Source: Neomoorella mulderi
GTDB lineage: Bacteria; Bacillota; DSM-521; Neomoorellales; Neomoorellaceae
Assembly (NCBI GenBank): GCA_011375465.1
Contig: DRZV01000093.1
Span: 1 to 47,784 of the forward strand
Direction: 5' to 3'
DNA: 47,784 nt
Of this stretch, positions 1-47,784 are shown piece after piece. The notes beneath the pieces were generated by a model that worked only from the letters and a program-made list of their open reading frames with translations, had not been told where the DNA came from and made no database searches. Positions within the stretch are counted from its first letter, which is position 1. Every line of letters starts with the position of its first letter. The translations under genes were made by a program, and so were the position numbers.

Positions 1-1
1 G

Positions 2-1006
2 GAGCCCCGTCTGGAGGTGCTCCTGATAGGTCCTGAGGTGGAGGGCCTGAAGGACTACCTCGGCGACGGGGTGAAGCACTATCCCACTGGTCCTGAGGAT
101 CGGGATATACACGAGGCTATGGAAAAGCTGTTGCAGGAGGGCACCATAGACGCGGCGGTGACCATGCACTATAACTTCCCCCTGGGTACCGCCACGGTGG
201 GGAGGGTGATCACGCCGGGATTGGGCCGGGAGATGTTCCTGGCCACCACCACCGGCACCATGGCCGCCGATAGGGTGGAGGCCATGGTGAAGGCAGCCAT
301 AGCGGGTATAGCCGCGGCTAAAGCCTGCGGCATCTCCAATCCCAGGGTAGGCATCCTCAACCTGGACGGGGCTCGGGCTTGCGAGCGGTCTCTCCAGCGT
401 TTGAAGGAGAGGGGATACAACATCACCTTTGCCGAATCCATCCGGAAAGACGGCGGCTTCATCATGCGGGGTAACGACCTCTTGGCTGGAGCGGCGGATG
501 TAATGGTTACCGACAGCTTAACGGGCAATGTGCTGATGAAGGTCTTCTCCGCCTACACCACGGGCGGGAATTATGAATCGCTGGGATACGGTTACGGTCC
601 GGGTCTAGGCGAGACCTACAACTACGTGGTATGCATAGTCTCCCGGGCCTCGGGAACCCCTGTGGTGGCCGGAGCTCTCCTTTATGCTGCCCAGGCTGCC
701 CGGGGCAAAGTGGTGGAGGTCTTTAAGAAGGAGATGCAGGCGGCTAAGGCTGCTGGTTTGGAGGAACTCTTTGTCAAAGAGGCGGCTCCCGAAGCAGCGG
801 CTGAAGTGACTCCACCCCCCGCCAAGGCGGTGGAGGAGGAGATACCGGGTATAGACGTCCTGGAACTGGAGAACGCGGTGAAGGCCCTGTGGGCTGCCGG
901 CATCTACGCCGAAAGCGGCATGGGCTGCACCGGCCCTGTGGCTCTGGTGGCCAGGGAAGACAAAGAGAGGGCCATAGAAATCTTGAAGGAAAAGGGCTAT
1001 CTCTAA
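2..1006 (+). CDS. PlsX/GrdD-like (phosphate acyltransferase fold) protein, 5' end outside window
   Basis: The frame is open from the window edge, with no stop upstream of the GTG at 17. Motifs VGILNLDG and DVMVTDSLTGNVLMK resemble PlsX and the PlsX-like glycine-reductase complex C alpha subunit. TAA stop at 1004-1006. Confidence 0.5.
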   Translation, partial: EPRLEVLLIGPEVEGLKDYLGDGVKHYPTGPEDRDIHEAMEKLLQEGTIDAAVTMHYNFPLGTATVGRVITPGLGREMFLATTTGTMAADRVEAMVKAAIAGIAAAKACGISNPRVGILNLDGARACERSLQRLKERGYNITFAESIRKDGGFIMRGNDLLAGAADVMVTDSLTGNVLMKVFSAYTTGGNYESLGYGYGPGLGETYNYVVCIVSRASGTPVVAGALLYAAQAARGKVVEVFKKEMQAAKAAGLEELFVKEAAPEAAAEVTPPPAKAVEEEIPGIDVLELENAVKALWAAGIYAESGMGCTGPVALVAREDKERAIEILKEKGYL

Positions 1007-1026
1007 AAGCCCTCCAGGAAGAGGCA

Positions 1027-1055
1027 AGGCCCGCCCCTAGAAGAGAGGCGGGCCT
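1027..1055. terminator. GC-rich inverted repeat between convergent genes
   Basis: 9-bp arms aggcccgcc / ggcgggcct with an 11-nt loop. The T-tract is weak. It overlaps the restored 3' end of the DUF523 pseudogene. Confidence 0.3.
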
Positions 1056-1509
1056 TTCTGATGCCTCTGTAGAAACTCCTGTTCGCTGATGACCCTAAAG
1101 CCGTGTCTTATGAGCAGGGCCGCCGTCACCCCGGTCCTGGCCGGAGGGTGTTGGTGAAGGTCCCGTCATATATATACCTGCAACCACAGGAGGGGCTTTT
1201 TTCCTTCAATATGGCCAGATGGGCTTTATGTTCCTGCGCCTGGCGAAGCGTTTCCCTGGCCCCTCTTAAAAAGGCAGAAGTCACATCTTGCCCTTCAATG
1301 TTTATAACCCTGGCCCGGCCTTCCAGCACATCATATCCGTTACCTCCCACGATTTCTGCCGGAGGCCTGGGCACAGGCAATTCCCCCAGAACTTCTGGGC
1401 AGAGGGGCAATAGGGGAAAGGAAAGCGATTCTTTGAGAAAGGGACATAAATTGTCCCCCCCATTGTACTTGCACTTTTCTCCCAAAAGACAAGCGCTGAC
1501 TATTATCAT
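1037..1509 (-). pseudogene. DUF523 (YbbK-like) protein, frameshifted
   Basis: The 127-aa ORF (MIIVSACLLGEKCKYNGG...SPSCG...YDGTF) stops at TGA 1126-1128. One extra G in the G4 run (plus-strand C4 at 1129-1132) continues it as GVTAALLIRHGFRVISEQEF..., the usual DUF523 C-terminus, ending at TAG 1037-1039. The span is 473 nt (3n+2). Confidence 0.65.
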
Positions 1510-13430: not shown

Positions 13431-14680
13431 GCGATTCCACCACATCCCGCCCAGAACCAGCCCTTTCAGGCTTGCAGAAAATCTACTGGGCGGAAAGGCA
13501 TATGCCTGTTCTAAACCGCTTGCGAGAAGAGCTGGAAAAAAGTCAGCCCTTTAAAGACAGAAGGATAGGCATATGTCTCCACCTGGAGGCCAAAACCGCT
13601 TTTTTGGCTTTGGTCTTAAAGGCCGGGGGTGCGGAGGTGGCCATCTGCGGTTCCAATCCCCTTACCACCCAGGACGATGTGGCTGCTGGATTGGCCAGCC
13701 TGGGGGTGAAAGTATTCGCCCGCAGGGGGGCCAGCGCGGAAGAATACAGGCATTACCTCCACAGAGTGCTGGACATCTGCCCCCACCTCCTCATCGACGA
13801 TGGGGGGGACCTGGTGAGCGCGGTGCACGGGGAGAGGCGGGAACTGATAGGGCATATCATAGGGGGAGCAGAGGAGACCACCACCGGGGTTAGAAGGCTA
13901 AGGGCTATGGAAAGGGAAGGGGTCCTGGGTTTTCCCATGGTGGCGGTCAACAATGCCTGTTGCAAGTATCTCTTCGATAACCGCTACGGGACGGGACAAT
14001 CCACCTGGGATGGCATAATGAGGGCTACCAATTTGAGCATAGCAGGTAAGAGGGTGGTGGTGGCCGGGTTCGGATGGTGCGGCAAAGGTATCGCCCAGAG
14101 GGCCAGGGGTTTAGGCGCCAGGGTAATAGTGACCGAGGTGGACCCCATCAGGGCCAATGAAGCCCTGATGGAAGGATACGAAGTGATGCCCATGGCAGAA
14201 GCCGCCCTTTTGGGGGACATATTCATAACAGCCACCGGATGTGCAGGGGTTATAGGGGAGAAACATTTTAAATCCATGAAAGATGGGGCGCTTTTGGCCA
14301 ATGCCGGCCACTTCGATGTGGAGGTGGACGTGGCCGCTCTGCGCCGGCTGGCCCGGGAAGTCAGAAGGGTCAGGGAGGGGGTGGAGGAATTTCTCCTGGA
14401 AGGGGGGAAAAGGCTCTATCTTCTGGCAGAAGGGCGGCTGGTGAACATAGCGGCTGCTGACGGACATCCTGTGGAGATCATGGATCTTTCCTTTGCCCTT
14501 CAGACCCTTTCCCTGGAATACCTGTTGCAGCAGGAGGGAAAACTGAAGCCAGGGCTCTACCCTGTTCCCCTGGAGGTGGACTGCCGAGTAGCCCAGCTAC
14601 GGCTGGAGGCCTTGGGGGTCAGGATCGACGAGCTTACCCAGGAGCAAAAAGAATATCTTTCCAGCTGGCAGATCACCTAA
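13427..14680 (+). CDS. ahcY: Adenosylhomocysteinase
   Basis: [34 protein letters not shown], the NAD motif [10 protein letters not shown], and GHFDVE. The ATG at 13427 has RBS aaggagagag and overlaps the mtnP stop (ATGA). The ORF-track start at 13361 lies inside mtnP. Confidence 0.92.
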
Positions 14681-15591
14681 GGGCGTTCTCCATAAAGGTC
14701 AACCGGCAGCGGCCAGCATCCAGGCATGCCTTTATCCCCAAAGGCAAGGTGGCCTGTAGCAGAGAGTGGCCTGCAGGCAAGCCGTAACAGGAAGGTTTGC
14801 CCTTTAAATAATGGTAAAGGACATCTGGTGCCTGGGGGCACCTGGAGAAGAGGCCACAGGCAAAGCCAGAGGCGTGATCTAGCTTGCCCGCCAATTTCAA
14901 CTGGGCCAACATGCGATCCAGGCGGTAGGCGGGCTCCCCTATTTCTTCTAGAAAGAGGATTTTGTTCCGGGTATCTATTTCAAAAGGGGTGCTCAGGGTG
15001 GCCACCACCAGGGACAGGTTGCCTCCCACCGGAGGCCCTTTTGCCTCACCGGGGTGGAGGCAGATGGGGGGGGAGGCAGTTCCGGAGGTGGGAACAGGGT
15101 CCCCAAAGGAGCATTGCAGCTCGAGGCTTGAAAGAAGCCTTTTTCCGTATAAAGGGGCAGTTGGGGAGCCCCCAGCTCGGGACAGACCATTGGGCCGTGG
15201 AAAGTCACCAGGCCCAGGGTTTTATATAAGGCCAGCAGTAGAGCTGTTACGTCGCTGTAGCCGATGAATATCTTGGGGCGGTTCCTCAAAAGGGAAAGAT
15301 CCAGATGGGGGAGCAGGCGCAGGCTGCCGTAACCCCCCCTCAGGGCTATAAGGGCCTTTACCCTGGAGTCCAGCACGAAATTGTGGAAATCTTCAGCGGC
15401 CAGCTCTTCCCGCAGATGGCCTTTGGCTTCGCCCACCGATCTGCCCAGCATTACTTTAAAGCCCAACCGGGTCAGGAGCAGCTGGGCCCTTTTCAAGTAA
15501 CCGGCATCCTCCAGGGGGGGCTGGCCGGGGCCCATATGGCCACCGTATCCCCCGGGTTTAGAGCCCGGGCCTTCAGAGGGGAAAAGCCCAT
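14673..15591 (-). pseudogene. ldcA: LD-carboxypeptidase (peptidase S66, LdcA-like) with two frameshifts
   Basis: Three consecutive frames carry the family in order: MGFSPLKARALNPGDTVAIWAPASP, then PLEDAGYLKRAQ...FIGYSDVTALL..., then ICLHPGEAKGPPVGGNLSLVVATL.... The frame changes fall at a G7 run (15524-15530) and a G8 run (15066-15073). The span is 919 nt (3n+1). Confidence 0.7.
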
Positions 15592-15690
15592 TTTCCCACC
15601 CCTTTTCTTGGATATGGCCTGAGGGGCCATTTTATTACCCTTTCTTGACACGAACAGAGGACTTGCTTATCATAAACTCTGAATAAGGAA

Positions 15691-20560: not shown

Positions 20561-20580
20561 CAGCCTATAAAAAACAAGAG

Positions 20581-20606
20581 CCCTGGGATTTCCCAGGGTT
20601 TTTTAT
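20581..20606 (+). terminator. Rho-independent terminator of htrA
   Basis: ccctggga/tcccaggg stem followed by ttttttatttt. Confidence 0.8.
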
Positions 20607-20614
20607 TTTATAAA

Positions 20615-20859
20615 ATGGTGCGCTTTCGTCTCCACGATCTTTTAAAGGATCCTTATGGTAAGGGATACCACCTCATTCTCTGCCGCAACGTCATGATATA
20701 TTTCACCCCTGATGTGCAGAGGGATATTTACCGTCGGTTTTATGAGTCCTTTCATCCAGGGGGAGTATTGTTTATCTTATCGGGGCTACCGAGACCATGT
20801 TTTACCACCGAGAGCTGGGATACATAAGGGAGGCGGCTTGGTTCTACCGCCGGCCCTAG
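20615..20859 (+). pseudogene. cheR: CheR methyltransferase remnant: C-terminal third only, also frameshifted
   Basis: YHLILCRNVMIYFTPDVQRDIYRRFYESFHPGGVLF matches the end of the CheR SAM-binding domain. After a frame change near 20771-20782 the family continues as LIGATETMFYHRELGYIREAAWFYRRP, ending at TAG 20857-20859. The N-terminal two thirds are absent, and the fragment abuts the htrA terminator. Confidence 0.7.
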
Positions 20860-20877: not shown

Positions 20878-21520
20878 ATGCGGGTTTGGGAACGGCTGGA
20901 TCCTGTCCATCTGGACACATTAAAGGAAATAGGCAACATCGGAGCGGGTCATGCTGCTTCTGCCCTGGCCGCCATGCTCGGGGTAAAGATAAATATGAAG
21001 GTGCCCCAGACCGGTATTCTCCTTTTGCCGGAGATTCCCACCCTGGTGGGGGGAGAGGAGGATCCGGTAGCCTGCGTGGAGTTCACCGTAAGGGGGGGAA
21101 GCCCCCAGCAAGATATTCTCCTTTTAACCCAGGAGAGCGCCTTTCTGCTGGTGGATATGTTCCTGAGCAGGGCTGCGGGATCTACCCGGGAACTGGACGA
21201 TATGGGCATTTCGGTGCTGACCGAGGTGGGCAACATACTGACCGGGTCCTTTTTAAACGCCTTTTCTCAGTTCTGCAATTTGACCTTCATGCCCAGCGTA
21301 CCGGCCTTCGCCTACGATATGCTGGCCGCGGTTTTGAGCTCAGCTTTTCTGGAGGGGGGCTATTTTTCTGACCATGCCCTGATAATCGAGACCGAGTTTT
21401 TCAGCCAGGATATCCGCTTGCAGGGCCACTTTTTTCTCATACCGGAGAGGCGAAGCCCTGGAAAAGATATTTTCTTCTTTAGGGATGGGCTTAAAATTAA
21501 AGAAGGGTAGCAGGAGGTAG
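20878..21520 (+). pseudogene. cheC: CheC-like CheY-P phosphatase with a frameshift near the 3' end
   Basis: LDTLKEIGNIGAGHAASAL and LTEVGNILTGSFLNA are the two CheC repeats. At about 21444-21450 the family C-terminus GEALEKIFSSLGMGLKLKK moves to another frame (stop 21518-21520), while the listed ORF ends in unrelated residues. The span is 643 nt (3n+1). Confidence 0.6.
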
Positions 21521-21525: not shown

Positions 21526-21855
21526 ATGGCAAAAAAGTTTTGGTGGTGGATGACGCCGCTTTTATATGGTTACGAAGTGGTTGGAGAGGCGGAAAACGGG
21601 ATAAAAGCGGTGGAGCTCTATAGGGAGCTCAAACCGGGCGTTGTCACCATGGACATAACCATGCCGGAAATGGACGGTATAGCTGCGGTGAAAGCCATAA
21701 GGCAGATAGACCCTAATGCCCGGATAATAATGTACAGCGCCGTGGGGCAGCAGATGATGGTAATGGAGGCCATCCAGGCGGGTGCTAAAGATTTCATAGT
21801 AAAGCCCTTTCAGCAGGACAGGGTCCTGCAGGCCCTGCAGAGGGCTTTGAGCTAG
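21526..21855 (+). pseudogene. cheY: CheY-like receiver with a scrambled N-terminus (acidic pocket lost)
   Basis: The downstream part is canonical: GYEVVGEAENG...TMDITMPEMDG...SAVG...VKPF. The first 14 codons read MAKKFWWWMTPLLY. The canonical VLVVDDAAF is encoded at 21537-21563 in the +1 frame, and about 32 nt that normally follow it are missing. The product is 109 aa, against roughly 120 for a normal CheY. Confidence 0.65.
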
Positions 21856-21859: not shown

Positions 21860-22839
21860 ATGGCCATGGGAGAGGTGCTTTCTCAAGCGGAGATAGACGC
21901 CCTGTTGCAGGCCATCAGCAGCGGGGAAGTGCAGATGGAGGACCTGAAGGAACAGGCTGAGGAGGGTAAGGTCAAAAGATACGACTTCCGCCGGCCCAAC
22001 AAATTTTCTAAGGAGCAGTTGCGCACCCTTTACATGATCCATGAAAACTTCGGGAGGATGGTGGCCAATTTCCTTTCCGCCTATTTGAGGGCCAACATCC
22101 AGGTGAAAATCATCTCCGTAGAACAGATGACCTACGAAGATTTTGCCCTCTCCTTGCCCACCCCCACTTTGATGAACATCTTCCCCCTGGATCCCCTGAA
22201 GGGTTCTGGGGTTCTCCAGGCAAATATGAACTTTGTATTCCCCATCATAGATCTCCTATTCGGGGGCAGGGGGGAGATGCTTCCCATAACCCGGGATTTC
22301 ACGAGATAGAGCTTCACGTGTTAAAGCGCTTATCCAATCGCCTGCTGGAGCAGCTTGTCTACTCCTGGTCCGATCTTCAGAAATTTACCCCCAAACTGGA
22401 GGGGATAGAGACCAACCCCCAGTTTGCTCAGGTGATTTCCCCCAACGAGACCGTAGCGGTTATAACCCTTTCCACTAAAGTGGGCCAGCAGGAAGGCCTA
22501 TTGAATTTATGCCTCCCCTATATGATGCTGGAGCCTCTCCTCTTTCGCCTTTCCACCAGCCAGTGGCTGGCTTCCACCAGCAATGGGGAGGAGAGGGGGA
22601 AATATCGGCTAACCCTGGAGAAGATCCTGGCCCAGGTGCCTGTGGAGCTGATAGCTTATTGCGGAAGGACAAAACTCAGGGTGAGGGACTTTATCCAGCT
22701 TCGGGAAGGGGATATCATCACGCTGGATCAGGAGATCGATAAAGATCTGGAGCTTTACGTGGACGGAAAGTTGAAGTTTAAAGTACAGCCGGGGATCCAA
22801 GGGGGAAAGCTGGCAGTTCAGATAACGGAGGTGCTTTAA
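21860..22839 (+). pseudogene. fliM: Flagellar motor switch protein FliM, frameshifted
   Basis: The N-terminus LSQAEIDALL is the CheY-P binding motif, and the two ORF-track pieces are 21860-22309 and 22318-22839. The expected ...RDFTEIELHVLKRLSN... requires one more G at about 22303 (acgagatag versus acgGagatagag). The span is 980 nt (3n+2). Confidence 0.8.
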
Positions 22840-23863
22840 GTGTCCGAGTTTCTCTCTCAAGAAGAGATCGACGCCCTGTTAAAGGGTGATGACGGGGTTC
22901 AGGAGCAGGAGCCGGAGTTACATTTGACAGATATAGAGAGGGATGCCCTGGGAGAAATCGGAAATATAGCCATGGGCAGTGCCGCCACGGCCATGTCCCA
23001 GATATTGAACAAGAGGGTCTCAATAAACTACCCTCCATACCTTTGTCACCACCTTAAAGGAGCTCTTTGAGGGCTTCCATGTCCCTTTCGTTCTGGTGGA
23101 AGTGGAATTCGTCGAGGGTTTAAATGGGGTCAACCTATTGGTGCTGGAGGAGAGCGACGCTGCCGTGATAGCCGATCTGATGATGGGAGGGGATGGGCTG
23201 AAGGGGCAAGGGGAGCTGGATGACATCAGAAAGAGCGCTGTGGCTGAGGCCATGAACCAGATGATGGGCAGTGCGGCCACTGCCATGGCCACCATGTTCA
23301 GGAGGAGCGTCAAGATAAGTCCCCCCGGTTGTTCTTCCATAAAGCTGGATAAGGGGGATTACCCCCCTCCTTGGCCTTTAGAGGAAAAGGTGATGGTGCG
23401 TTTCAAGATGGTTATCGGAGATCTCATAGACAGCTACATAGTCCAGGTTATACCCCCTGAGGTGGCTAGAGCCCAGGTAGCTCTGCTCACGGAAGGCCAG
23501 GGATCCCACCAGGAGGAAGCGCCTGCCCCAGATGAAGGAGTATCTCTTCCCCCTAAAGCTCTCCCTCCGCCAGAGACTGGGAAGGTGTATGGATCCGCCA
23601 GGAACATAGACCTGATTTTAGATGTGCCCCTGGAGATAGAGGTGATATTGGGATCTGCTTCTAAAAAAATCGGGGAAATCTTGAATCTATCCCCTGGGGC
23701 GGTGGTGGAACTGGACAGGTTTATAGAGGAGCCTGTGGAAATATGCATAAACGGGACCCCCATAGCCAGGGGAGAAGTGGTGGTGGTGGTGAATGAAAAT
23801 TTTGGAGTAAGGATTATCCAGATACTGGATCCCTATGAGAGGATAAACCGGTTGAAAAGATAA
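22840..23863 (+). pseudogene. fliY: Flagellar switch protein FliY (CheC-like domain plus FliN domain), frameshifted
   Basis: LSQEEIDALL, ALGEIGNIAMGSAATAMS, then a frame change between about 23024 and 23038. The family continues as TFVTTLKELFEGFHVPFVLVEVEFVEG in the second ORF piece. The C-terminal FliN domain is LDVPLEIEVILG...[20 protein letters not shown]. The span is 1024 nt (3n+1). Confidence 0.75.
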
Positions 23864-23895: not shown

Positions 23896-24079
23896 TTAGG
23901 AGCGTCTGTTTTTCATGGCTTCCTCCGCCTTTTCGATGGCCAGACGTACCAGGTTGCCGCAATCTCTGGTAGGGTACACTTCCCCACCCTTCCCGCATCA
24001 CCGTATCGTAAACACCCAGTTCTTTAGCCAGCTCGTATTTCAGCTCCTCAGACATGATGCCTCTACGCCTGCGGGCCAT
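23896..24079 (-). pseudogene. Alpha/beta-type small acid-soluble spore protein-like gene, frameshifted
   Basis: [35 protein letters not shown], then the frame is lost. Removing one nt near 23968-23975 gives ..[25 protein letters not shown], ending at TAA 23896-23898. The span is 184 nt (3n+1). The 130-aa ORF-track product is an artefact of the shift. Confidence 0.6.
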
Positions 24080-24198: not shown

Positions 24199-24676
24199 TT
24201 AGTACACCCTTACCCTATCGGCTCCGTGATCCCTCATTATGCGGTTGGCCTGATCTGCATATTGATCCTCGCAGTGGACAGAGACCAAAATTTTTCCTTG
24301 ACGGATCTTCTTCTTCGTATTGACGGCCTTCTTCTTCCGGAATACCCCAGTCTATTAAACCACCTGCGATACCCCTCGCGGCAGCGCCCGATAAGAGCCC
24401 CGCTATGGGTCCGGCGGCCACCAGGGGCCCCAGTCCTGGGATGAACAGGGCGCCTGCCCCTGCTGCCAGCCCTGCAAGCCCTCCCAGGACTCCACCGGTG
24501 GCGATGCCGTCGGCTATCCCGCCACCGCCTTCCATGGTCATGGCTTCACCCTGCTGGCCTTCCCGGCCCCGGGCCAATATGGATATCTCTTTATCGAAAC
24601 CAGCTTTTCTTAAGTCCTCCACCACTTCCCTGGCCACCTGTTCATTTTTGAACACACCCACCACTGTCTTGGCCAT
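24199..24676 (-). pseudogene. YflT/general-stress-protein-like gene, frameshifted
   Basis: MAKTVVGVFKNEQVAREVVEDLRKAGFDKEISIL, a Gly-rich middle, and GIPEEEGRQYEEE. The expected C-terminus [35 protein letters not shown] (stop 24199-24201) is in another frame from about 24300. The span is 478 nt (3n+1). Confidence 0.65.
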
Positions 24677-24792: not shown

Positions 24793-25908
24793 ATGGAATA
24801 CGATGTAATAATCTGTGGGGCTGGCCCCGCCGGCAGCACCTGCGCTCGGTTTTTGGCGGGCCAAGGAGCTGAGGTTTTGCTCCTGGATAAAGCCGTTTTT
24901 CCCCGTCCCAAAATCTGCGGAGGTGGCCTTACCAGGGGGGCGGTGAAGGAACTGCCGCCGGGTTGGGAAGGTTTAAAAGAAGGTGAAATTAGGCACCTGG
25001 TTTTTCTTTTTAAAAATGAAGAGCCGGTGGAGATAACCTTTACCCAGCCTGTGGTCTATACCGTCTCCCGAACCCTTTTGGACCATTGGCTGCTGGAGCA
25101 AGCCCTGGAAGCAGGAGCCAAATTGAGGGAGGGCTTTCGGGTGCTGGGCATAGAAGAGGATTCCAAGGGGACGAGGGTATGGGGCCCCAAGGGGGAAAGC
25201 CTGAGGGCCAGATATGTGGTGGGGGCCGACGGGGCCCACAGCGTTGTCCGCCGCCATTTAGATTTATCAATTGAAAGGGGTTTTTGCTTAAATCTGGAAG
25301 TTCCCAAGCCCCAGGTATTTTCCGGGGAAAAGATCTATTTTACCTACGGATACCTGCTAGGTTATGGGTGGATTTTCCCCAGGGGAGCTCACCTGAGCGT
25401 AGGTATGGGGGCTTTCTTTAATTGTAAAGTCAATTTTAAACCTTATCTAGAGAAATTTTGCCGCAAGGTGGGCATAGATCTCCCCTCAATTCCGTGGCAG
25501 GGGGCTTGTCTTTCTTTCCTTCCAGAAGGGGAAGTCCGGCTCCACACGGATAGGGTTCTGCTCATAGGAGAGGCTGCGGGTTTGGTAGACCCTTTCACCG
25601 GAGAAGGGATTTCCCATGCCCTGCGCAGCGCCCGATGGGCAGCCGGGATCTTGATGAAGGCCTTGAGGGGAGGGGGCGGGTTGGAAGAATATGGCGAAAA
25701 GCTGGGGAGGGAGATGCTCCGCCATATCAGGTATGCCCGCTTCATCGCCAGGACCGTTTATACCTGGGCTCCCTGGATACATAGGTTGCTGGGCCTGCGC
25801 CCCCAAATTGTAGCTAAACTCTTAGGGGTGATGGCGGAGGAAAACACCTATCTCGATCTGTGGGGATACCTGACCGAGAATTATCCCCTCTTTCGCCAGG
25901 CTGTTTGA
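24793..25908 (+). CDS. FAD-dependent oxidoreductase, geranylgeranyl reductase family
   Basis: The YDVIICGAGPAGSTCA dinucleotide-binding motif, KICGGGL, GADGAHS, and GEAAGLVDPFTGEGI. Confidence 0.8.
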   Translation: MEYDVIICGAGPAGSTCARFLAGQGAEVLLLDKAVFPRPKICGGGLTRGAVKELPPGWEGLKEGEIRHLVFLFKNEEPVEITFTQPVVYTVSRTLLDHWLLEQALEAGAKLREGFRVLGIEEDSKGTRVWGPKGESLRARYVVGADGAHSVVRRHLDLSIERGFCLNLEVPKPQVFSGEKIYFTYGYLLGYGWIFPRGAHLSVGMGAFFNCKVNFKPYLEKFCRKVGIDLPSIPWQGACLSFLPEGEVRLHTDRVLLIGEAAGLVDPFTGEGISHALRSARWAAGILMKALRGGGGLEEYGEKLGREMLRHIRYARFIARTVYTWAPWIHRLLGLRPQIVAKLLGVMAEENTYLDLWGYLTENYPLFRQAV

Positions 25909-26811
25909 TCAGCCCGGCAGCAGTTTTTCTAATATCCCCGCCAGAATCCCCGTGAAGAGCAGGAATACCAAGGACGAAGCGAGATTGAACAGGGTATGGA
26001 AGTGGGCTATCTGGAAGCCAGGATCCCGGCTTAAAAGGGGGAGGAGGGGCGCCAGGAGGAGCAGGAGGGGAAAGAACATCAGTGCTCCCAGGATATTAAC
26101 CAGCAGGTGGGCCAGGGCAGTCCTCTGGGCAGCCCGGGAAGAGAAGAGGGAGGCCAGGAGGCCGGTGGCGCAGGTGCCTATATTGGCCCCCAGGACCACG
26201 GCCAGGGCCGAAAGGGCGGAAAGGAATTTCTGTTCGAACAGGACCATGGTGATCCCGGTCACCACGCTGCTGGAATGGAGGCCAGCGGCCATGAAGATAC
26301 CGGCCAGGAAGCCCCTAATCGGATCCAGGTGGGGGAGGAGGAAAAGCCAGGCCTTGCTCTTCTGCCAGGCCTCCAGGGAGTTTTCCAGAAGCTCCAGGCT
26401 GAAAAACGTGACCTCCACCCCCACCAGGGCCAGACCGCTGGCTCTGCCCCTGGGCCACAGGATCAGGACAAGCCCCATCAGGATGAGGGGGCAAGCCCAT
26501 GCATGGAGGTCCAAAGCCATGAGCTGAACCGTGAGGCAAGTGCCCACATTGGCCCCCAGGATTATCCCCAAGCTCTGGTCAAAGCTTATCTAGCCCCCGT
26601 CCACCAGGCCTATGGTGAGGACGGTGACGGCTGTGCTGGACTGCACCAGGGCCGTGGCCAGGGTGCCCCAAAGAAAGGCGGCGTAGGGGTTGGACGCTGC
26701 TCTTTCTATTAAATGCCTCGCATGTCCTTTGGCCCCCTGCCCCAGGCCGTATTTTAAAAGCTGGAGCGAGGCCAGCAATAAGGATGTGCCCGCCAGCAAT
26801 TTATACAACAC
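25909..26811 (-). pseudogene. Na+/phosphate cotransporter-family (PF02690-like) membrane protein with an in-frame TAG
   Basis: The two ORF-track pieces are in the same frame and are joined by TAG (26590-26592): ...ALVQSSTAVTVLTIGLVDGG*ISFDQSLGIILGANVGTCLTV.... This is the conserved NaPi repeat, and the second repeat LGANIGTCATG is present. Confidence 0.7.
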
Positions 26812-28377: not shown

Positions 28378-30356
28378 AGCGGGTAGGCGTGTTCGTCTGC
28401 CACTGCGGCTCCAATATTGCCGGGGTGGTGGATGTAAAAAAGGTGGCAGAGGCAGCCAAAGAATTCCGGGACGTGGTCTTTGCCACCGATTACGAGTATA
28501 TGTGCTCTGATCCTGGACAGGAGCTCATCCGCAAGGCCATCAATGAGCACCAGCTCAACCGAGTGGTGGTGGCCTCCTGTTCCCCTCGGCTTCACGAGGA
28601 GACCTTCAGGAGATGCTGTGAGAGCGCGGGCCTAAACCCCTACCTCTTTGAGATGGCAAACCTCAGGGAACAGGTGGCCTGGTGCCACGCCAAGGATAAG
28701 GAGGCAGCCACCGCAAAGGCCATCGAACTGATCAGGGGTGCGGTGGCCAAGGTAAGGCGGAGCGCTCCTTTGACTCCCGGGGTAGTCCCCATCACCAAAA
28801 AGGCCCTGGTCATCGGCGGTGGCATAGCGGGGATCCAAGCTGCCCTGGATATTGCGGATGCCGGCTATAAAGTGACCCTGGTGGAAAGGGAGCCCACCAT
28901 AGGGGGAGCCATGGTAAAGCTGGATAAGACCTTCCCCACCCTGGACTGCTCTGCCTGAATAAGCACCCCCAAGATGGTTGCCGCGGCGCGGCATCCCAAT
29001 ATAGAGCTTTTGACTTACTCAGAAGTGGAAGACGTATCCGGTTATGTGGGCAATTTTGAAGTCACCATCAGGAAGAAGGCCCGGAAGGTGGACGCCACCA
29101 AATGCCGGGGATGCGGTGTGTGCTGGGAAAAATGTCCCACCAAAGTGGATAGCGAATTCGAACAGGGCCTGGCCAAGAGAAAGGCCATCTATATCCCCTT
29201 CGCCCAGGCCGTGCCGGCCATACCAGTGATAGATCAAGAGCACTGCCTGTATTTCACCAAGGGAAGGTGCGGTGTGTGCCAGAAGGTTTGCCCGGCCAAG
29301 GCCATAGACTACGAGCAACAGGACGAGATCATCAAGGACAAGTTCGGGGCAATAATAGTGGCCACGGGCTTTGAACTGTTCAACTGGAGGGAGGTTTACG
29401 GCGAATACGGTTATGGCAAGTATCCCGATGTGATCGACAGCATGCAATTTGAGCGGCTCAACGTTTCCTCCGGTCCCACCGGCGGCAAAATCCTCAGGCC
29501 TTCCGACGGCAGGGAGCCCAAAACGGTGGTATTCATAAAGTGTGTGGGTTCCCGGGATGAAGCCAAGGGTAAGAGCTACTGTTCCCGGGCCTGTTGCATG
29601 TACACCGCCAAACATGCTCATCAGGTTCTGGAAAAGATACCCGGAGCCCAGGTTATAGTCTTCTACATGGACATTCGCACCCCGGGCAAGGCCTACGAAG
29701 AATTCCTGGAGAGGACTATACACGAAGGGGCCATCTATGTAAGGGGGAGGGTAAGCAAGGTATTCCCGGAAGGGGATAAGCTCATAGTCAAGGGAGAAGA
29801 CACCCTATTGGGTCGCCCTGTAGAGGTGGCTGCCGATCTGGTGGTGGTGGTCCCTGCCATGGTGCCCAGCCGGGGATGGGATAAGCTGGCCAAAATGCTG
29901 GGGTTGCAGACAGATAAGGACGGCTTCTTCCAGGAGGCCCATCCCAAACTGAGGCCGGTGGAGACCTTCACCGCAGGGGTATTCCTGGCGGGCGCCTGTC
30001 AAGGACCTAAGGACATCCCCGATACGGTAGCCCAAGCCAGCGCGGCCGCCGCCAAAGCAATTCTGTTGCTCTCCAAGGACGAGATGGCTACCGAGCCCAT
30101 GGTGGCTTCTGTAGACCAGAGCGTGTGCGCCGGATGCGGTCTCTGCGTGGAGGTCTGCCCCTACAAGGCCATCTCCTTGACCACCATCGCCGAGAGGGTG
30201 GGCGGCAGAGAGATCACCAGGCAGGTGGCCACCGTCAATACCGGCCTCTGTCAGGGTTGCGGCAGCTGCGCCGTCACCTGCCCCTCCAGTGCCATGAATC
30301 TCAAGGGCTTCACCAATGAACAAATTCTGGCGGAGGTGGACGCCATATGTCTATAG
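28374..30356 (+). CDS. hdrA: Heterodisulfide reductase subunit A, with an in-frame UGA (probable selenocysteine) at 28956-28958
   Basis: [12 protein letters not shown], the FAD motif [32 protein letters not shown], the ferredoxin motifs [33 protein letters not shown] and [12 protein letters not shown]. The two ORF-track pieces are in the same frame. Confidence 0.85.
28976..28996 (+). promoter_or_regulatory. Candidate SECIS hairpin for the hdrA UGA
   Basis: ggttgccg / cggcatcc stem (one T-T mismatch) with loop cggcg, starting 20 nt after the U of the UGA. Confidence 0.45.
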
Positions 30357-30784
30357 CTGCCGAGGAGAAACAGTGGGAACCCAAAATAGTGGCCTTTTGC
30401 TGCCACTGGTGTTCCTATGCGGCTGCCGATCTGGCTGGTTTAAGCCGCCTGCAGTATCCTCCCAATGTGAGGATCATAAGGGTTCCCTGTTCCGGCAGGG
30501 TGAACCCCCAGTTCGTGCTGAGGGCTTTCCAGCGGGGGGCCGATGGGGTGCTGGTGGCGGGGTGACACCCCGGAGAATGCCACTATGGTAGTGGCAATTA
30601 CTATGCCCGCCGGCGCCTCTTGCTTCTGCAAAAGGTTTTACAATTCATGGGTCTGGAGCCGGAAAGGTTTCAAGTCAAGTGGATATCGGGTTCAGAAGGA
30701 CCCCGGTTCGCTCAAGCTATCCAGCAGATGACCGAACAGGTTAAGGCTCTAGGACCCAATAGAAAGTTGAGGGATCGGGTATGA
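30347..30784 (+). CDS. mvhD: MvhD/FlxD-like iron-sulfur subunit, with an in-frame UGA (probable selenocysteine) at 30563-30565
   Basis: [28 protein letters not shown], and [29 protein letters not shown]. The frame stays open to TGA 30782-30784, which overlaps the next ATG (ATGA). The ORF track shows only the first 72 aa. Confidence 0.8.
30578..30596 (+). promoter_or_regulatory. Candidate SECIS hairpin for the mvhD UGA
   Basis: tgccacta / tagtggca 8-bp stem with loop tgg, starting 15 nt after the U of the UGA. It can be extended with a bulge (aat...aatt). Confidence 0.5.
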
Positions 30785-35464: not shown

Positions 35465-38149
35465 ATGCATCCATGGCACAGCTGGACTCTCCATGAAGTT
35501 TTGGAAAAATTGGCTACCGACCCGACAGAGGGCCTCAGCTCCGCGGAGGCCTAGGCCCGCCTGGAAAAATACGGGCCCAATCTCCTTCAAGAAGGTCCGC
35601 CCAAAGGGCCTTGGCCCATTCTGCGGGAGCAGTTCACCGGGGCCCTGGCCCTCCTCCTCCTGGCGGCCGCGGCGGTGTCGTTTCTCCTGGGAGAGTATAA
35701 AGACGGCCTTGCCATCTTGGTAATCGTGGTTTTAAACGCCCTTCTCGGTTTTATCCAGGAATACCGGGCTGAGAAGGCGATGGAGGCGCTCAAAAAATTT
35801 TCTGTCCCCCGGGCAAAGGTGCTGCGGGAGGGCAGAATTCAGGAAATATCCGCCCAGGAGCTGGTCCCTGGAGACGTCTTCTTCCTGGAAGCGGGTGATG
35901 TGGTGCCTGCGGACGGCCGCCTCCTGGAGGCCGCCAACCTCAGGTTGCTGGAGGCCATCTTGACCGGTGAATCGGTCCCGGTGGATAAAGATCCTTCCGC
36001 CATAATTCCGGCAGAGGCACCTTTAGGCGATCGGAATAACATGGTCTACAAGGGGACCACTGTGGCTTTCGGCCGGGGAACAGCCGTGGCCACCGGTATG
36101 GAGACAGAGCTGGGGCGCATCGCCGGTATGATCCAGAGGGTGGAGGCCGAGCCCACCCCTTTTCAACGGCGCATGGCCGCACTGGGCCGCACTTTGGGAT
36201 TGATAGCCTTGGCGATTGTGGTAGCGGTGACCCTGTTGGGGATTTTACGGGGCGAGCACCCGAAAACCATGTTTCTCACTGGAGTGAGCCTGGCGGTGGC
36301 CGCTGTGCCGGAAGGGCTCCCCGCTGTGGTCACCATTACCCTGGCCCTGGGGGCCCAGAAGATGCTGAGGCGTCGCGCCCTTATCCGCAGGCTTCCCGCT
36401 GTAGAAACTTTGGGCTCGGTCACCAAGATATGCACCGACAAGACCGGAACCCTAACCCAGAACCGGATGACCGTCACCGCCCTGGCCCTGCCCGTCCGGG
36501 ACCTGGACAGGAGGGTTGAGGTTTTTTCTTTTTCCGGGGAAAAGCCCGCCTCTTTGCCCCCGGCAGCCCATTTTTTGCTGGGGGCCGGTGCCCTCTGCAA
36601 CGATGCCGTCTTAACCCCAAAGGGGGAGGAGTTTTCTTATATAGGGGATCCCACTGAAGGCGCCCTGGTTATGGCCGCCATGCAGCTGGGTTACTCCAAA
36701 CCCCAACTGGAAGGGGCCCTTCCTCGCCTGGCGGAGTTACCTTTTTCTTCTGAGCGGAAGCGGATGACCACCATTCACCAGGTGGGCGGGAACTGCCGGG
36801 ACCTCTGGGCGGAGTTTTTGGGTAGGGGAGATCCGCCGCCCCACGTCCTTTTCACCAAAGGCGCCTTCGACCTCCTTTTACAGGCCTGCAACGGAGTATG
36901 GGTAAACGGCAAAATAGAACCCCTGGATGAATGGCGAAAGGAGCTGGAGCAGACCAATGGGGAGCTCTCCCAGGCAGGTCTGCGGGTGTTGGCGGTGGCC
37001 TTCCGTTTTTTAGCTGCCCTGCCCCAGGAGGTTACAGAGGAACTGGAAAAAGACCTTGTTTTCCTGGGGCTGGTGGGAATGATGAATCCTTTGCGGCCAG
37101 AAGCCAAGGGGGCGGTGGAGACCTGCCGTCAAGCGGGAATCGACCCGGTAATGATTACCGGCGATCACCCCCTCACTGCCCTGGCCATTGCCCGGGAACT
37201 GGGCCTTGATACAGGGCGCATTTTAACAGGCAGCCAACTGGACGGATTTTCGCCGGAAGATCTGGTCCAAATTGCTGAAGAGGTGGCTGTCTATGCCCGG
37301 GTTTTCCCCTCCCATAAGCTCAAGATAGTGGAAGCTTTACAGCGCAGAGGGCATGTGGTGGCCATGACCGGCGACGGGGTAAATGACGCTCCTGCCTTGA
37401 AGAAAGCCGACATCGGGGTGGCCATGGGAGTTGCCGGAACCGATGTGGCCAAAGAGGCTGCCGATATGGTGCTTCTGGATGATAATTTTGCCACCATTGT
37501 AGCTCCAGTGGAAGAAGGCCGGGTGATCTACGACAACATCCAAAAGTTCCCTAAATATCTAATGGCCACCAATCTGGGCGAGATCCTAATCATTTTTGCC
37601 GGTATTTTATGTGGAACGCCAGTGCCCTTGGCGCCGCTCCAGATCCTCTGGATCAATCTGGTCACGGACGGTCTTCCGGCCCTCGCCCTGTCGGTGGAGC
37701 CGGCTGAGGAAGGGGTCATACGCCGCCCCCCACCTGACCCCAAGGCCAGCCTTTTCGCCGGGGGTTTGGGCACGCATATTCTCTGGGTTAGCGCCTTGAT
37801 GGCAGCCACATGTCTTGGTGTCGGTTATTGGTTTTGGCAGCTGGGCCAGCCTTCCTGGCAGACAATCCTTTTCACCACCCTTGTCTTCGCCCAATTGGCC
37901 CATGTACTGGCTGTGCGCACAGGGCGGATTCCCCTTTTAAAGGCCGGTCTCCTCTCCAATCCCGCCGCTTTGGGGGCCGTCCTGTTGAGCATGGCCTTAC
38001 AGCTGGCGGTTATCTATCTGCCTCCTCTGCAGGAGGTCTTCCGTACTGTTTCTTTGACCCCTACCCAGCTCCTCCTCTGTTTCTTTCTGGGCAGCCTGGT
38101 ATTCTGGGTAGTAGAGGCCGAGAAATGGTTCCGGTGCCCTCGTCCCTGA
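35465..38149 (+). pseudogene. P-type ATPase, type IIA (SERCA/PMR1-like Ca2+/Mn2+ pump) with an in-frame TAG at codon 30
   Basis: From the ATG at 35465 (RBS gggggtga): MHPWHSWTLHEVLEKLATDPTEGLSSAEA-TAG(35552-35554)-ARLEKYGPNLL..., the standard N-terminus of this family. It continues in frame into the 824-aa ORF with LTGESVPV, CTDKTGTLTQN, MITGDH and GDGVNDAPALKKA. Confidence 0.8.
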
Positions 38150-40377: not shown

Positions 40378-40390
40378 GAAGGCCTTTTCT

Positions 40391-40490: not shown

Positions 40491-40530
40491 TGTAACGGGG
40501 GCCGAACTATAATCACAAGAGGACCGGGTC

Positions 40531-40962
40531 ATGTTTATAGGAGAATACCATCACACCATAGATGAGAAGGGTCGCCTGATCATCCCCGCCCGTTTTAGGG
40601 AAAAACTGGGTCCCAAATTCATCGTCACCAAGGGGCTGGATCACTGCCTCTTTGCATATCCTCCCGAGACTTGGAAAGAGCTGGAGCAGAAACTCCGCCA
40701 TCTGCCCTTCACCCGGGCCGATGTGCGCTCTTTCCTCCGTTTCTTTTTTTCTGGGGCTACCGAATGCGAGCTGGACCGGCAGGGCAGGATATTGCTGCCG
40801 GCCAATTTGAGGGCCTACGCCCAGCTGGATAAGGAGGCGGTGGCGGTGGGGGTTTCCAGCCGAGTGGAGATCTGGAGCCGCCAGCTGTGGGAGGAATACT
40901 GCCAGAGGACAGCGGAGCAATTCGAAGCCCTGGCGGAGAAGCTGTCGGATCTGGATATTTAA
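40531..40962 (+). CDS. mraZ: Transcriptional regulator MraZ
   Basis: [20 protein letters not shown] and the second repeat [13 protein letters not shown]. It is the first gene of the dcw cluster. Confidence 0.93.
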
Positions 40963-40968
40963 AGGAAG

Positions 40969-41880: not shown

Positions 41881-41883
41881 GCT

Positions 41884-42363: not shown

Positions 42364-42393
42364 AACCTAGAAAACCTAGGAGGTGGGAAAGGG

Positions 42394-44529: not shown

Positions 44530-44594
44530 AGACCCTTTTCCCCCTCTGGATTCCGTGATAAGCTAAGAAGTGGACGCTGGGAGGGGGTATCCGA

Positions 44595-46103: not shown

Positions 46104-47494
46104 CTCCTGCGGGAGAGATATGCCGTATAACCGGAGGCAGGCTGCTGGCAGGGGATCCCCAAAGGGTGGCAAGGGGCATAAGCACCGACACCCGAACCCT
46201 GGAGAGGGACATGGCCTTCATAGCCCTCCGGGGGAGCCGGTGGGACGGCCACAATTTCATACCCGTGGCCGTGGATAAGGGTGCGGCCGTTGTTCTGGCG
46301 GAGGATTTTAAACCCGAGATCAGGGACAGGGGGAAAGACACGGCCCTCATCCAGGTGGAGGATACCCTTAGGGCCTTGGGCCAGCTGGCTGCCCATCACC
46401 GGCGGGAAAATTTTCAGGGAGTGATGGTGGCGGTGACCGGGTCCAGCGGCAAGACCACCACCAAAAACCTGGTGGCTGCTGTGCTTTCCCTCCGGTACAG
46501 CACATTGAAGAGCCCCTCCAGTTTCAACAACGAGATCGGCCTTCCCCTGACCCTCCTCTCCCTGGAGCCCCATCACCAGGCCGCGGTGGTGGAGATGGCC
46601 ATGAGGGGGCTGGGGGAAATCGCCTATCTCTGTTCTCTGGCCCGGCCCCAGGTTGGCGTTATCACCAATATAGGTACTGCCCATCTGGGCCGCTTGGGCT
46701 CTTTGGAAAACATAGCCAAGGCCAAAGGGGAATTGATCCATAGCCTTCCCCCTGAGGGCTGGGCCATACTCAATAGGGACGATCTCCGTTGCCGCCAGCT
46801 GGCCCTGGAAGCCCCTTGCCCGGCAATACTCTTCGGCCAAAACCCTGAATGCCAGGTGAGGGTTGAGGGCATAAAAAACAAGGGGCTGGCAGGGGTGGAG
46901 GCCACGGTCAGCTTTTCGGGGGAAAGGATAGGGGTCTTGCTTCCGGTTCCGGGGCTGCACAATGTATATAACGCCCTGGCTGCCCTGGCCGTGGGTTGGG
47001 TCTTGGGAATCCCCCCTAAAGCCATGGCCGATGCCTTCAACCCCTGGCCCCAGGAGGCCCTCCGTCAAGAATTCCGCCCTGGGCCCCGGGGTTGCCTTGT
47101 TTTCAATGACTCCTACAACGCCAACCCCGATTCCATGCGGGCTGCCCTGGATACCCTGGCCTCCCTGCCCGGCCAGAGGAAGATGGCGGTGCTGGGCCAG
47201 ATGGCGGAATTGGGGGAAGCTGCCCCCCGCTACCACCGGGACATAGGCTTTTATGCCGCCAGGAGAGGTCTTCACCGACTTATCCTGTTGGGTCCTTATG
47301 GGGAGGATACGGCAGCCGGGGCCCTGCAGGGGGGTATGGATCCTGAGGAGGTAAAGGTATGCCGTTACAGAGAGGAGGCACTGCAATACCTGAAAGACGT
47401 GAAACAAGGCGATGTGGTTCTCTTCAAAGGTTCCCGCCAGGCGGAAGTGGACAGAGTCCTGGCCCTCTGGGAGGCTGAAAGGGATGATCTGTAA
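46094..47494 (+). CDS. murF: UDP-MurNAc-tripeptide:D-Ala-D-Ala ligase
   Basis: VTGSSGKTTTK, EMAMRG.GEI, ITNIG.AHL, NDSYNANP and MAELG motifs. It overlaps the murE end. Confidence 0.9.
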   Translation: MFVAPAGEICRITGGRLLAGDPQRVARGISTDTRTLERDMAFIALRGSRWDGHNFIPVAVDKGAAVVLAEDFKPEIRDRGKDTALIQVEDTLRALGQLAAHHRRENFQGVMVAVTGSSGKTTTKNLVAAVLSLRYSTLKSPSSFNNEIGLPLTLLSLEPHHQAAVVEMAMRGLGEIAYLCSLARPQVGVITNIGTAHLGRLGSLENIAKAKGELIHSLPPEGWAILNRDDLRCRQLALEAPCPAILFGQNPECQVRVEGIKNKGLAGVEATVSFSGERIGVLLPVPGLHNVYNALAALAVGWVLGIPPKAMADAFNPWPQEALRQEFRPGPRGCLVFNDSYNANPDSMRAALDTLASLPGQRKMAVLGQMAELGEAAPRYHRDIGFYAARRGLHRLILLGPYGEDTAAGALQGGMDPEEVKVCRYREEALQYLKDVKQGDVVLFKGSRQAEVDRVLALWEAERDDL

Positions 47495-47784
47495 AGGCTT
47501 TCTTCTCTCCTTCATGCTCACCTTGATCCTGGGCCTTCCCTGGATCTGGATATTGAGGAGACTGAAGATGGGGCAGATGGTGCGCTCCGATGGCCCCCAG
47601 ACCCATTGGGGTAAGAAGGGAACCCCCACCATGGGCGGGCTGATATTCCTGTCAGCCATAAGCCTGGCACTCCTATTGGATCCCACTCCCCTGAACGTTT
47701 TTGCTCTGCTCCTGACCTGGGGATATGCCCTCATAGGGCTGGCGGACGATGCTTTAAAGGTGGTCTTTCGAAGGCCTTTGGGCC
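47484..47784 (+). CDS. mraY: Phospho-MurNAc-pentapeptide translocase, 3' end outside window
   Basis: It is not in the ORF track because there is no stop in the window. From ATG 47484: MICKGFLLSFMLTLILGLPWIWILRRLKMGQMVRSDGPQTHWGKKGTPTMGGLIFL...GLADDALKV, with the MraY hallmarks GTPTMGG and DD. It overlaps the murF stop. Confidence 0.85.
   Translation, partial: MICKGFLLSFMLTLILGLPWIWILRRLKMGQMVRSDGPQTHWGKKGTPTMGGLIFLSAISLALLLDPTPLNVFALLLTWGYALIGLADDALKVVFRRPLG

Follow-up and report, generated by a model that had tools for sequence, protein, structure and literature searches.

Shared and strain-specific lesions in chemotaxis/flagellar and accessory genes of Neomoorella mulderi

Results

Broken Genes in the Window

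The window analyzed here is a 47,784-nt stretch of Neomoorella mulderi DNA, which was read together with about 17 kb of flanking sequence (some 65 kb in all). Eleven of the 49 genes in the window are broken (Table 1), or six of 44 when the flagellar remnant is set aside; with the flanks included the count is roughly 11 of 66, all 11 lying inside the window and none in the ~17 kb of flanks. The 14 lesions in 11 genes listed by a sequence-only reading of this DNA are all present, as checked by analysis of the reading frames, by the coordinates of Pfam matches, and by tblastn searches in which intact orthologues of two Moorella genomes were the queries. That description needs correction: five of the 11 broken genes are on the minus strand, and, of the two sites assigned to ldcA, the one at 15066–15073 is accurate but the other, placed at 15524–15530, is in fact a G7 run 4–10 bp away. 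Most of the lesions are indels of 1–2 bp or nonsense mutations; two are base substitutions, and two (the cheR truncation and one of the cheY lesions) are deletions of at least 32 bp. The first 20 intact genes that were checked match their NCBIfam models over essentially the full length. No IS elements are in view in the window or its flanks.

Table 1. Broken genes, a strain-variable gene, and in-frame TGA codons of the window
Feature	Coordinates	Strand	Observation
DUF523 (PF04463)/2-thiouracil-desulfurase-like pseudogene	1037..1509	-	One G missing, run 1129-1132
ldcA (LD-carboxypeptidase, peptidase S66) pseudogene	14673..15630	-	Two frameshifts, G7 15514-15520 and G8 15066-15073
cheR remnant	20561..20859	+	Codons 176-255 only, codons 1-175 gone; 5-bp tandem duplication (TTATC) 20772-20776
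cheC	20878..21520	+	+1 frameshift ~21448, last ~20 residues replaced; common to strain B
cheY	21526..21855	+	One G lost 21536/21537; 32-bp deletion ~21565
fliM pseudogene	21860..22839	+	One C lost at 22302
fliY pseudogene	22840..23863	+	One extra A in run 23025-23027; common to strain B
Alpha/beta-type SASP-like gene	23896..24079	-	+1 base at 23970; frame unbroken in strain B and Moorella
YflT-domain stress protein gene	24199..24676	-	+1 base at 24308; frame unbroken in strain B and Moorella
Geranylgeranyl-reductase-family FAD oxidoreductase	24793..25908	+	Intact in window and strain B; G6 24935-24940
Na/Pi cotransporter-family gene (NaPi)	25909..26811	-	In-frame TAG 26590-26592
hdrA in-frame TGA	28956..28958	+	Aligns to Cys of DCSxC motif; same TGA in both Moorella genomes
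mvhD/FlpD in-frame TGA	30563..30565	+	Aligns to conserved Cys; hairpin follows; TGA also in uncultured Moorella
P-type Ca2+-ATPase	35465..38149	+	In-frame TAG, codon 30, 35552-35554

Five of the broken genes make up a chemotaxis/flagellar remnant, cheR through fliY, that begins about 50 bp past the stop codon of htrA. The probability of finding at least six of 13 lesions inside 3.3 kb by chance is 0.011. When Moorella orthologues are used as tblastn queries, the alignments cross a frame switch or a stop in cheR, fliM, and fliY, as well as in SASP, YflT, and NaPi; in the main frame the C terminus of cheC and the N terminus of cheY are left unaligned. Pfam matches to the broken genes are divided or end early, and become full-length once the sequence is repaired. 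Repair of cheC yields a C terminus that aligns with the solved structure of Thermotoga CheC through to its end. In cheY the two lesions jointly restore the frame, leaving an open stretch of 109 codons that lacks the DD acidic (aspartate) pocket. The fliY gene has, in the window alone, an additional in-frame GTG at 23777–23779.

The other six broken genes are unrelated accessory genes. The DUF523 product ends at residue 127, equivalent to profile position 123 of 141, with its true C terminus (GVTAALL...) in another frame; conceptual repair extends the match to positions 1–141. Each of the two G runs in ldcA exceeds the homologue-like length by two bases (seven against five, and eight against six). 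The repaired SASP-like gene scores 20.9 bits in Pfam SASP, just under the 22-bit cutoff, and its unrepaired frames match no Pfam family; the SASP and YflT family assignments are tentative, drawing on low Pfam scores (20.9 and 31.1 bits, respectively) and on synteny. The closest intact homologue of the Ca2+-ATPase, that of Ammonifex thiophilus, carries Gln at codon 30, so that a single CAG-to-TAG change suffices to produce the stop; in other homologues this position is Gly, His, Asp, or Ser.

The hdr/flx cluster had been described as free of lesions. Two in-frame TGA codons do interrupt it, in hdrA and in mvhD, but they are selenocysteine codons and not lesions. They were left out of the lesion count because each is a conserved site at a functionally sensible residue. 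Substitution of Cys at the mvhD TGA gives a full profile match (1–123), and a short way upstream of the window grdA/grdB show the splitting that selenocysteine codons would cause.

Comparison with Moorella

The locus was compared with those of an uncultured Moorella (L038–L040) and of M. thermoacetica (CP017019.1; L041), where the block reads flhA ... cheD-cheR-cheC-cheY-fliM-fliY, SASP, YflT, FAD oxidoreductase, (NaPi), hdr/flx. Gene order from cheR through hdr/flx is the same in the window as in both Moorella loci; the selenocysteine TGA of hdrA recurs in both, and that of mvhD in the uncultured Moorella (Table 1). The loci differ in that the genes are intact in Moorella and in what immediately precedes them, the flagellar operon (flhA ... 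cheD) in Moorella but htrA in the window. Both Moorella genomes have intact cheR (257/259 aa), cheC (206 aa), cheY (120 aa), fliM (323 aa), and fliY (378/395 aa), followed in the same order by SASP (59 aa) and YflT (164/162 aa). Intact NaPi (305 aa) is found in the uncultured Moorella; there is no NaPi gene at the syntenic locus of M. thermoacetica.

The lineage of the window, an uncultured relative of Moorella, branches outside the two Moorella genomes, which are mutually closest. A relative-rate test with M. thermoacetica as outgroup is invalid for this topology, and only a ratio of branch changes was kept: the ratio of window-unique to Moorella-unique amino-acid changes is 2.1 in broken and 3.4 in intact genes, with no acceleration in the broken ones. 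Since the repaired proteins are still 63–82% identical to those of the uncultured Moorella, and divergence on the window branch is no higher in broken genes, the sequences indicate that inactivation is recent.

Independent Assemblies

The window lineage is represented by metagenome assemblies, built with MEGAHIT, SPAdes, and Logan, that share 99.9% identity with the window, and the lesion sites are unchanged in two to five independent assemblies. Each of these assemblies differs from the window by scattered SNPs, and the only indels among them are the fliY GTG and a G6/G7 difference at 24935. Five samples contain the truncated DUF523 product in exactly this form, and three contain the ldcA fragment; the che/fli, SASP, YflT, and NaPi lesions recur in two or three assemblies and the ATPase TAG in two, its truncated product being found under JGI as well. 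A MAG named wilburensis (bioRxiv 10.1101/2021.03.22.436540) was obtained from one of these samples, JGI 3300022547. Comparison with independent assemblies had been proposed as a check on the lesions, and none of these assemblies has an indel at any lesion site. Twelve of the 14 lesions are invariant across window-lineage assemblies; the two ldcA run lengths differ between strains. A search of 5.8 billion proteins returned no intact allele closer than 77% identity for fliM, 55% for ldcA, and 75% for the ATPase.

The earlier statement that several lesions sit in homopolymers holds for some of them; only three of the 13 small lesions are in runs of at least six bases. Heterogeneous run lengths, which had been named as the sign of an artefact, do occur in ldcA, where haplotypes elsewhere read G7 + G9 with deletion of A15033, or G5 + G6 with an added T at 15219 and an added G at 15010, but every haplotype carries two or more frameshifts. 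Because the haplotypes keep two frameshifts and the indels of the divergent strain avoid intact genes (see below), the variation is attributable to real slippage in a dead gene and not to read error. The argument that random error would not spare the named intact genes is borne out: random placement of 13 lesions misses the 22.8 kb of those genes with P = 1e-4.

Sister Strain B

Strain B (L051, L055) is 98.4–98.9% identical to the window and is known from one older JGI assembly, 3300003902, with some N bases. It shares the cheR truncation, the cheC frameshift, the 32-bp deletion in cheY, and the fliY frameshift. Confined to the window lineage are the fliM, SASP, and YflT frameshifts, the NaPi TAG, both ldcA lesions, and the lost G of cheY; strain B is ancestral at these sites, including the SASP and YflT insertions and both ldcA runs, and at the cheR duplication. 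Strain B nonetheless has lesions of its own in cheR, cheC, fliM, fliY, NaPi, and ldcA. At 22302 its fliM reads an intact ACC GAG, but the gene has suffered a 13-bp deletion; at the site of the NaPi TAG it has TGG (Trp), but a 1-bp deletion interrupts codon 24. A third ldcA haplotype was found in a further assembly (L052). In two further window-lineage assemblies a G7 run frameshifts the FAD oxidoreductase, dividing it into 64 + 321 aa; two states of this site have been seen so far.

Between the window and strain B there are about 28 indel events, all in broken genes or spacers, and none in ~7.6 kb of intact coding sequence. Strain B also served for estimates of selection, as at ~70% nucleotide identity to Moorella synonymous sites are saturated. 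The comparison of broken with intact genes against a close relative, suggested by the sequence-only reading, gives pN/pS of 1.25 for broken genes (47 nonsynonymous and 12 synonymous differences) and 0.36 for intact neighbours (31 and 28); the contrast has a Fisher P of 0.003 on small counts, 59 differences per class. For ldcA the value is 0.8. The broken genes evolve neutrally, without constraint, and, taken with the independent assemblies, these values uphold the view that the lesions are real mutations under relaxed selection. The intact-gene value of 0.36 is itself fairly high; estimated dN/dS ratios are 0.98 for cinA and 0.85 for the FAD oxidoreductase.

Discussion

The lesions are real, fixed, and neutrally evolving, and they very probably mark a stranded flagellar remnant and six accessory genes in which decay is ongoing. 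Pseudogene formation under relaxed selection is a textbook phenomenon, and the locus is a clean but ordinary case of it. No literature specific to this organism or to its pseudogenes was found.

In the history that we favor, the locus upstream of mid-cheR was lost in the window lineage, and what remained of cheR came to adjoin htrA. The truncated cheR, with cheC, cheY, fliM, and fliY, would then have been stranded without purpose and would have gathered frameshifts and deletions since. For DUF523, ldcA, SASP, the YflT-type stress protein, the Na/Pi transporter, and the Ca2+-ATPase, one or two small mutations apiece would have sufficed for inactivation. The population in which the lesions are fixed is represented in five metagenomes or more, and the lesions evolve neutrally there. 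Decay is very probably still running, as the sister strains have acquired different, independent lesions in fliM, ldcA, and NaPi, and the FAD oxidoreductase is broken in some strains only.

Neomoorella sulfitireducens has htrA and fliM on different contigs, with mcp-cheW-cheA-cheB next after htrA, and so lends no support to an origin of the htrA/cheR junction in one deletion. Among GTDB species representatives, relatives share only IMPACT-cinA-htrA around htrA, and none has a che remnant downstream. It may be that flagellar genes are gone from the whole genome and that the cells are non-motile, though such genes could yet be present outside this locus.

The product of each broken gene would be expected to have lost its function. 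The expectation is doubtful where the frame is still largely open, as in DUF523, cheC, and cheY. That the broken genes are all dispensable, as had been proposed, is plausible from their functions.

Inactivation might have been favored by selection rather than tolerated after selection was relaxed. The parallel losses are the attraction of this idea: fliM, ldcA, and NaPi are hit differently in the window lineage and in strain B. Plain neutrality also predicts parallel hits once a gene is useless, however, and the fliM operon was already dead in the common ancestor, as the shared cheR, cheC, cheY, and fliY lesions attest. A pN/pS near 1 fits neutrality, and we regard adaptive loss as unlikely.

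It is quite improbable that the lesions in G runs are reversible phase-variation switches, contingency loci that involve no decay. The runs do vary between strains: in ldcA one is G5 or G7 and the other G6, G8, or G9, and that of the FAD oxidoreductase is G6 or G7. Because every ldcA haplotype carries two frameshifts, however, no single slippage event restores the gene; the pN/pS of ldcA is 0.8, and the homologue-like run lengths, 5 and 6, are short. A simple on/off switch would fit the FAD oxidoreductase only, a gene known in just two states.

Recoding that keeps the interrupted genes expressed, by TAG readthrough or pyrrolysine or by programmed frameshifts, is less credible again, and very improbable. 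Both premature stops are TAG, and the organism does recode TGA as selenocysteine in hdrA, mvhD, and the split grdA/grdB. The TAG sites are not conserved, however, being TGG in NaPi of strain B and a variety of sense codons in ATPase homologues, and a pyrrolysine reading of the two was rejected on that ground. The window-specific frameshifts are absent from strain B and Moorella, the broken genes evolve neutrally, and no pyl genes are visible in the window.

Sequencing or assembly error, chiefly miscounted homopolymers in genes that are intact in the organism, can point to three lesions in runs of 6–8 bases (both in ldcA, and one in cheY beside an A6 run) and to variation of both ldcA run lengths between assemblies, but it is effectively refuted by the recurrence of the same lesions in assemblies that each have their own SNPs, by the 10 of 13 small lesions outside long runs, by the base substitutions and larger deletions, by the confinement of strain B indels to broken genes and spacers, by the elevated pN/pS of broken genes, and by the improbability that random placement would spare the named essential genes.

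Real decay of the kind favored here has well-known counterparts. Shigella, Yersinia pestis, and Bordetella pertussis have abandoned motility, and their flagellar and chemotaxis genes have decayed. Such decay is also documented in Brucella ovis (PMC7410920) and Xanthomonas fuscans (PMC3826837). The likeness extends to the sequence of events, a large deletion of part of the motility set followed by frameshifts and small deletions in the stranded genes, and to lesions that differ from strain to strain. Unlike the motility-loss pathogens, the organism of the window is a thermophilic, probably free-living Moorella-like Firmicute, and its non-motility is deduced rather than recorded.

Pseudogene-rich genomes in early reductive evolution, such as those of Mycobacterium leprae, Sodalis glossinidius, and host-restricted Salmonella serovars, offer a second comparison. 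The window resembles genomes of this type (review PMC11078800) in its high local density of recent pseudogenes, with or without the flagellar remnant, in its 1–2-bp indels and nonsense mutations, and in a dN/dS near 1 in broken genes while the core is spared. It differs in that only ~65 kb is seen here, the 17 kb of flanks having no broken gene and no IS elements being in view, and in that no evidence of host restriction or of a small population was found.

For annotation, the 11 genes deserve a pseudogene flag, and the apparent stops in hdrA and mvhD deserve to be annotated as selenocysteine. The locus displays decay stepwise, since shared lesions, strain-specific lesions, and a gene polymorphic for its break can be told apart, and selection clearly differs between its broken and intact genes. 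It could also be used as a marker to trace sublineages of the organism across metagenomes.

This relative of Moorella has probably lost motility along with several accessory functions; if that holds genome-wide, it would be unusual for a free-living thermophile. More tentatively, this environmental, thermophilic lineage may be in an early stage of genome-wide reductive evolution in which 10% or more of the genes have recently been broken. In that case local decay around a deleted flagellar operon might not be the whole story: sister strains that each inactivated ldcA and the Na/Pi transporter on their own could have gone through the same lifestyle change, or loss could even have been selected for.

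Gene Content and Lesions

Of the 49 protein genes in the window (47.8 kb, 56% G+C), almost all lie on the plus strand; it also encodes tRNA-Asn, tRNA-Met, and, in the seemingly empty spacer before gdh, an RNase P RNA. The gene map combines the gene calls and Pfam hits of near-identical public contigs, our own Pfam and NCBIfam scans, and direct reading of frames; the first 20 intact genes checked match NCBIfam models over essentially the whole model length. Moorella and Neomoorella are the nearest named relatives: HtrA is 70% identical to that of Neomoorella, and the repaired FliM (its conceptual translation with the lesion corrected) is 72–76% identical to FliM of named species.

The sequence-only reading had listed 14 lesions in 11 genes, and every one is present, which confirms the observation; only the upstream ldcA lesion, in the G7 run, had been placed a few bases away. 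Five of the 11 broken genes lie on the minus strand. Homopolymers were also remarked on in that reading; just 3 of 13 small lesions fall within runs of at least six bases. Restoring one G to DUF523 extends the profile match to 1–141 (157 bits versus 136 bits unrepaired). At first glance cheC seems intact; once repaired, CheC aligns with the solved structure of its Thermotoga counterpart right up to the final residues. In cheY, the G loss of the window lineage exactly offsets the older 32-bp deletion, leaving an open 109-codon frame (21526–21855) that lacks the DD phospho-acceptor pocket, whether by chance or through selection for a shorter protein. Close to its end, fliY has a GTG repeat, in which the window alone carries an extra in-frame GTG (23777–23779; one more Val); Moorella, strain B, and every other assembly are without it. 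For the Ca2+-ATPase, the nearest intact homologues belong to Ammonifex thiophilus (75%) and Thermodesulfitimonas (69%) rather than to Moorella; the gene may be a horizontal acquisition, or Moorella may have lost it.

Features of the window, and lesions by lineage (strain B, contigs L051 and L055, is the sister strain; it is ancestral at sites altered in the window lineage only)
Feature	Strand	Position	State in the window	Common to both (older)	Window lineage only	Strain B only
DUF523 (PF04463)	minus	1129–1132	run short by one G; product ends at profile position 123/141			
RNase P RNA, bacterial class A		9213–9573	full length, 324 bits			
ldcA	minus	15514–15520 (G7); 15066–15073 (G8)	three frames, switching at the runs		both runs	+T, +G
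cheR	plus	20772–20776	codons 176–255 alone, from ~50 bp past htrA stop; 5-bp tandem duplication	truncation	5-bp duplication	delA
cheC	plus	~21448	+1 frame holds authentic C-terminus ALEKIFSSLGM	+1		delG, del7
cheY	plus	21536/21537; ~21565	one G lost; 32 bp lost; frame restored, DD acidic pocket absent	32-bp deletion	lost G	
fliM	plus	22302	one C lost		lost C (strain B: ACC GAG)	del13
fliY	plus	23025–23027	one A gained	+A		+T, delT, delT
SASP	minus	23970	one extra base		+1	
YflT	minus	24308	one extra base		+1	
NaPi transporter	minus	26590–26592	in-frame TAG		TAG (strain B: TGG)	delC at codon 24
hdrA TGA		28956–28958	selenocysteine codon			
mvhD/FlpD TGA		30563–30565	selenocysteine codon			
Ca2+-ATPase (35465–38149)	plus	35552–35554	in-frame TAG, codon 30			

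The hdr/flx cluster had been counted as spared. It does contain two in-frame TGAs, in hdrA and mvhD, but each of them aligns to a conserved cysteine; they are selenocysteine codons rather than lesions. Both Moorella genomes have the hdrA TGA in the identical place, that of mvhD recurs in the uncultured Moorella, and a hairpin lies 3′ of the latter. Gene callers cut hdrA into ORFs of 194 and 460 aa and mvhD into 72 and 52 aa. Just upstream of the window (13290–15108 of contig L042) is a gene cluster for glycine reductase (grdX, trxB, trx, grdE, grdA, grdB, grdC, grdD), with grdA (44 + 107 aa) and grdB (82 + 351 aa) split as selenocysteine would predict. Recoding of the interrupted genes is rejected, since their TAG and frameshift sites show no conservation.

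Sequencing Error Is Excluded

The locus was found by exact-product look-ups in assemblies from ENA (ERZ27245603, MEGAHIT; ERZ1744545, SPAdes), Logan (SRR5216258, SRR7787785), and JGI (3300022547, 3300025054). Jointly they cover 1–30562 and 32394–47784 at 99.9% identity, with 34 scattered SNPs. Two indels separate them from the window (GTG 23777–23779 and a G6/G7 difference at 24935), setting aside the JGI 3300025054 contig (L052), which has its own ldcA and contig-end differences; its difference at 23335–23347 lies within 42 bp of its end and may be an end artefact. At no lesion site outside ldcA is there an indel in any of these assemblies. The truncated DUF523 product is recorded in five samples and the ldcA fragment in three, and the ATPase TAG occurs in two assemblies, its truncated product being recorded at JGI as well. 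Among 5.8 billion proteins searched with repaired FliM, LdcA, and ATPase, no intact allele is closer than 77%, 55%, and 75% identity, respectively. Random sequencing error is excluded. The sequence-only reading had argued that such error would not spare most of the coding sequence, and the placement of the lesions alone already made it unlikely: the chance that 13 randomly placed hits miss the genes named there as spared is P = 1e-4.

Selection and the Order of Lesions

Strain B, known from two contigs of JGI 3300003902, is 98.4–98.9% identical to window positions 13804–28112 and has the htrA–cheR′ junction in common with it. Its SASP and YflT genes are each one uninterrupted frame, and its ldcA runs, of lengths 5 and 6, agree with intact homologues, which read ASPL and LPPPV there. 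Scattered N bases in its contig L055 (for example at locus positions 1557, 1690, 4722, and 7795) suggest a mixed or low-coverage consensus. Some 28 indel events separate the window from strain B, every one in broken genes or spacers and none in ~7.6 kb of intact coding sequence, a pattern that selection alone can produce.

Against strain B, intact genes show 28 synonymous and 31 nonsynonymous differences (pN/pS 0.36), broken genes 12 and 47 (pN/pS 1.25; Fisher P = 0.003), which supports the proposal of real mutations under relaxed selection. The weakest constraint among intact genes is in cinA (17861–19108; pN/pS 0.98, 8 differences), with the FAD oxidoreductase (24793–25908) at 0.85 (11 differences), both very small counts. 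On the window branch versus Moorella, amino-acid change is not higher in broken genes (ratio 2.1, versus 3.4 in intact ones), and repaired proteins are still 63–82% identical to those of uncultured Moorella (L038). Inactivation is therefore recent relative to the Moorella split, yet it predates the 0.1% diversity within the window lineage.

Decay is ongoing. The geranylgeranyl-reductase-family FAD oxidoreductase is intact in the window and strain B, with G6 at 24935–24940, and G7 in ERZ27245603 and SRR5216258, both of the window lineage, shifts the frame at about codon 48. The site is either a nascent pseudogene or a slippage switch; phase variation at G runs is conceivable only here. The ldcA runs do not fit it, each haplotype of that gene having two frameshifts. 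A third ldcA haplotype (G7 + G9 + delA15033) occurs in L052, 99.9% identical to the window.

A Stranded Flagellar Remnant

Contigs of an uncultured Moorella (L038–L040) and M. thermoacetica CP017019.1 were reached through the nearest intact FliM. Both genomes have a conserved block, flhA-flhF-flhG-pilZ-sigD-...-flgG-cheD-cheR-cheC-cheY-fliM-fliY, followed by SASP(−), YflT(−), the FAD oxidoreductase, NaPi(−) (uncultured Moorella only), and hdrCBA-mvhD, all full length. Gene order in the window matches this block from mid-cheR onward, and htrA stands in the place of the flagellar operon; the five che/fli genes thus appear, by gene order, to be the stranded tail of a lost operon. In Neomoorella sulfitireducens (L009, 11330–20095), fliM is on a contig other than that of htrA, and the genes after htrA encode an M1-like peptidase and a polysaccharide deacetylase, with mcp-cheW-cheA-cheB beyond them; none of this follows htrA in the window.

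Locally, 11 of 49 genes are pseudogenes; leaving the flagellar remnant aside, the count is 6 of 44. No gene is broken in the 17 kb of visible flanks, so decay across the whole genome is no more than a hypothesis. These data do not separate adaptive from neutral loss: that ldcA and NaPi were hit in parallel is compatible with either.

Decay of flagellar genes after loss of function is known from several non-motile lineages (PMC7410920, PMC3826837), and pseudogene formation after such loss has been reviewed (PMC11078800). The window shows the same familiar pattern, pseudogenes forming once function is lost. What is new is the instance: a Moorella-like thermophile in which recent pseudogenes are locally dense, with lesions that are strain-resolved and partly parallel.
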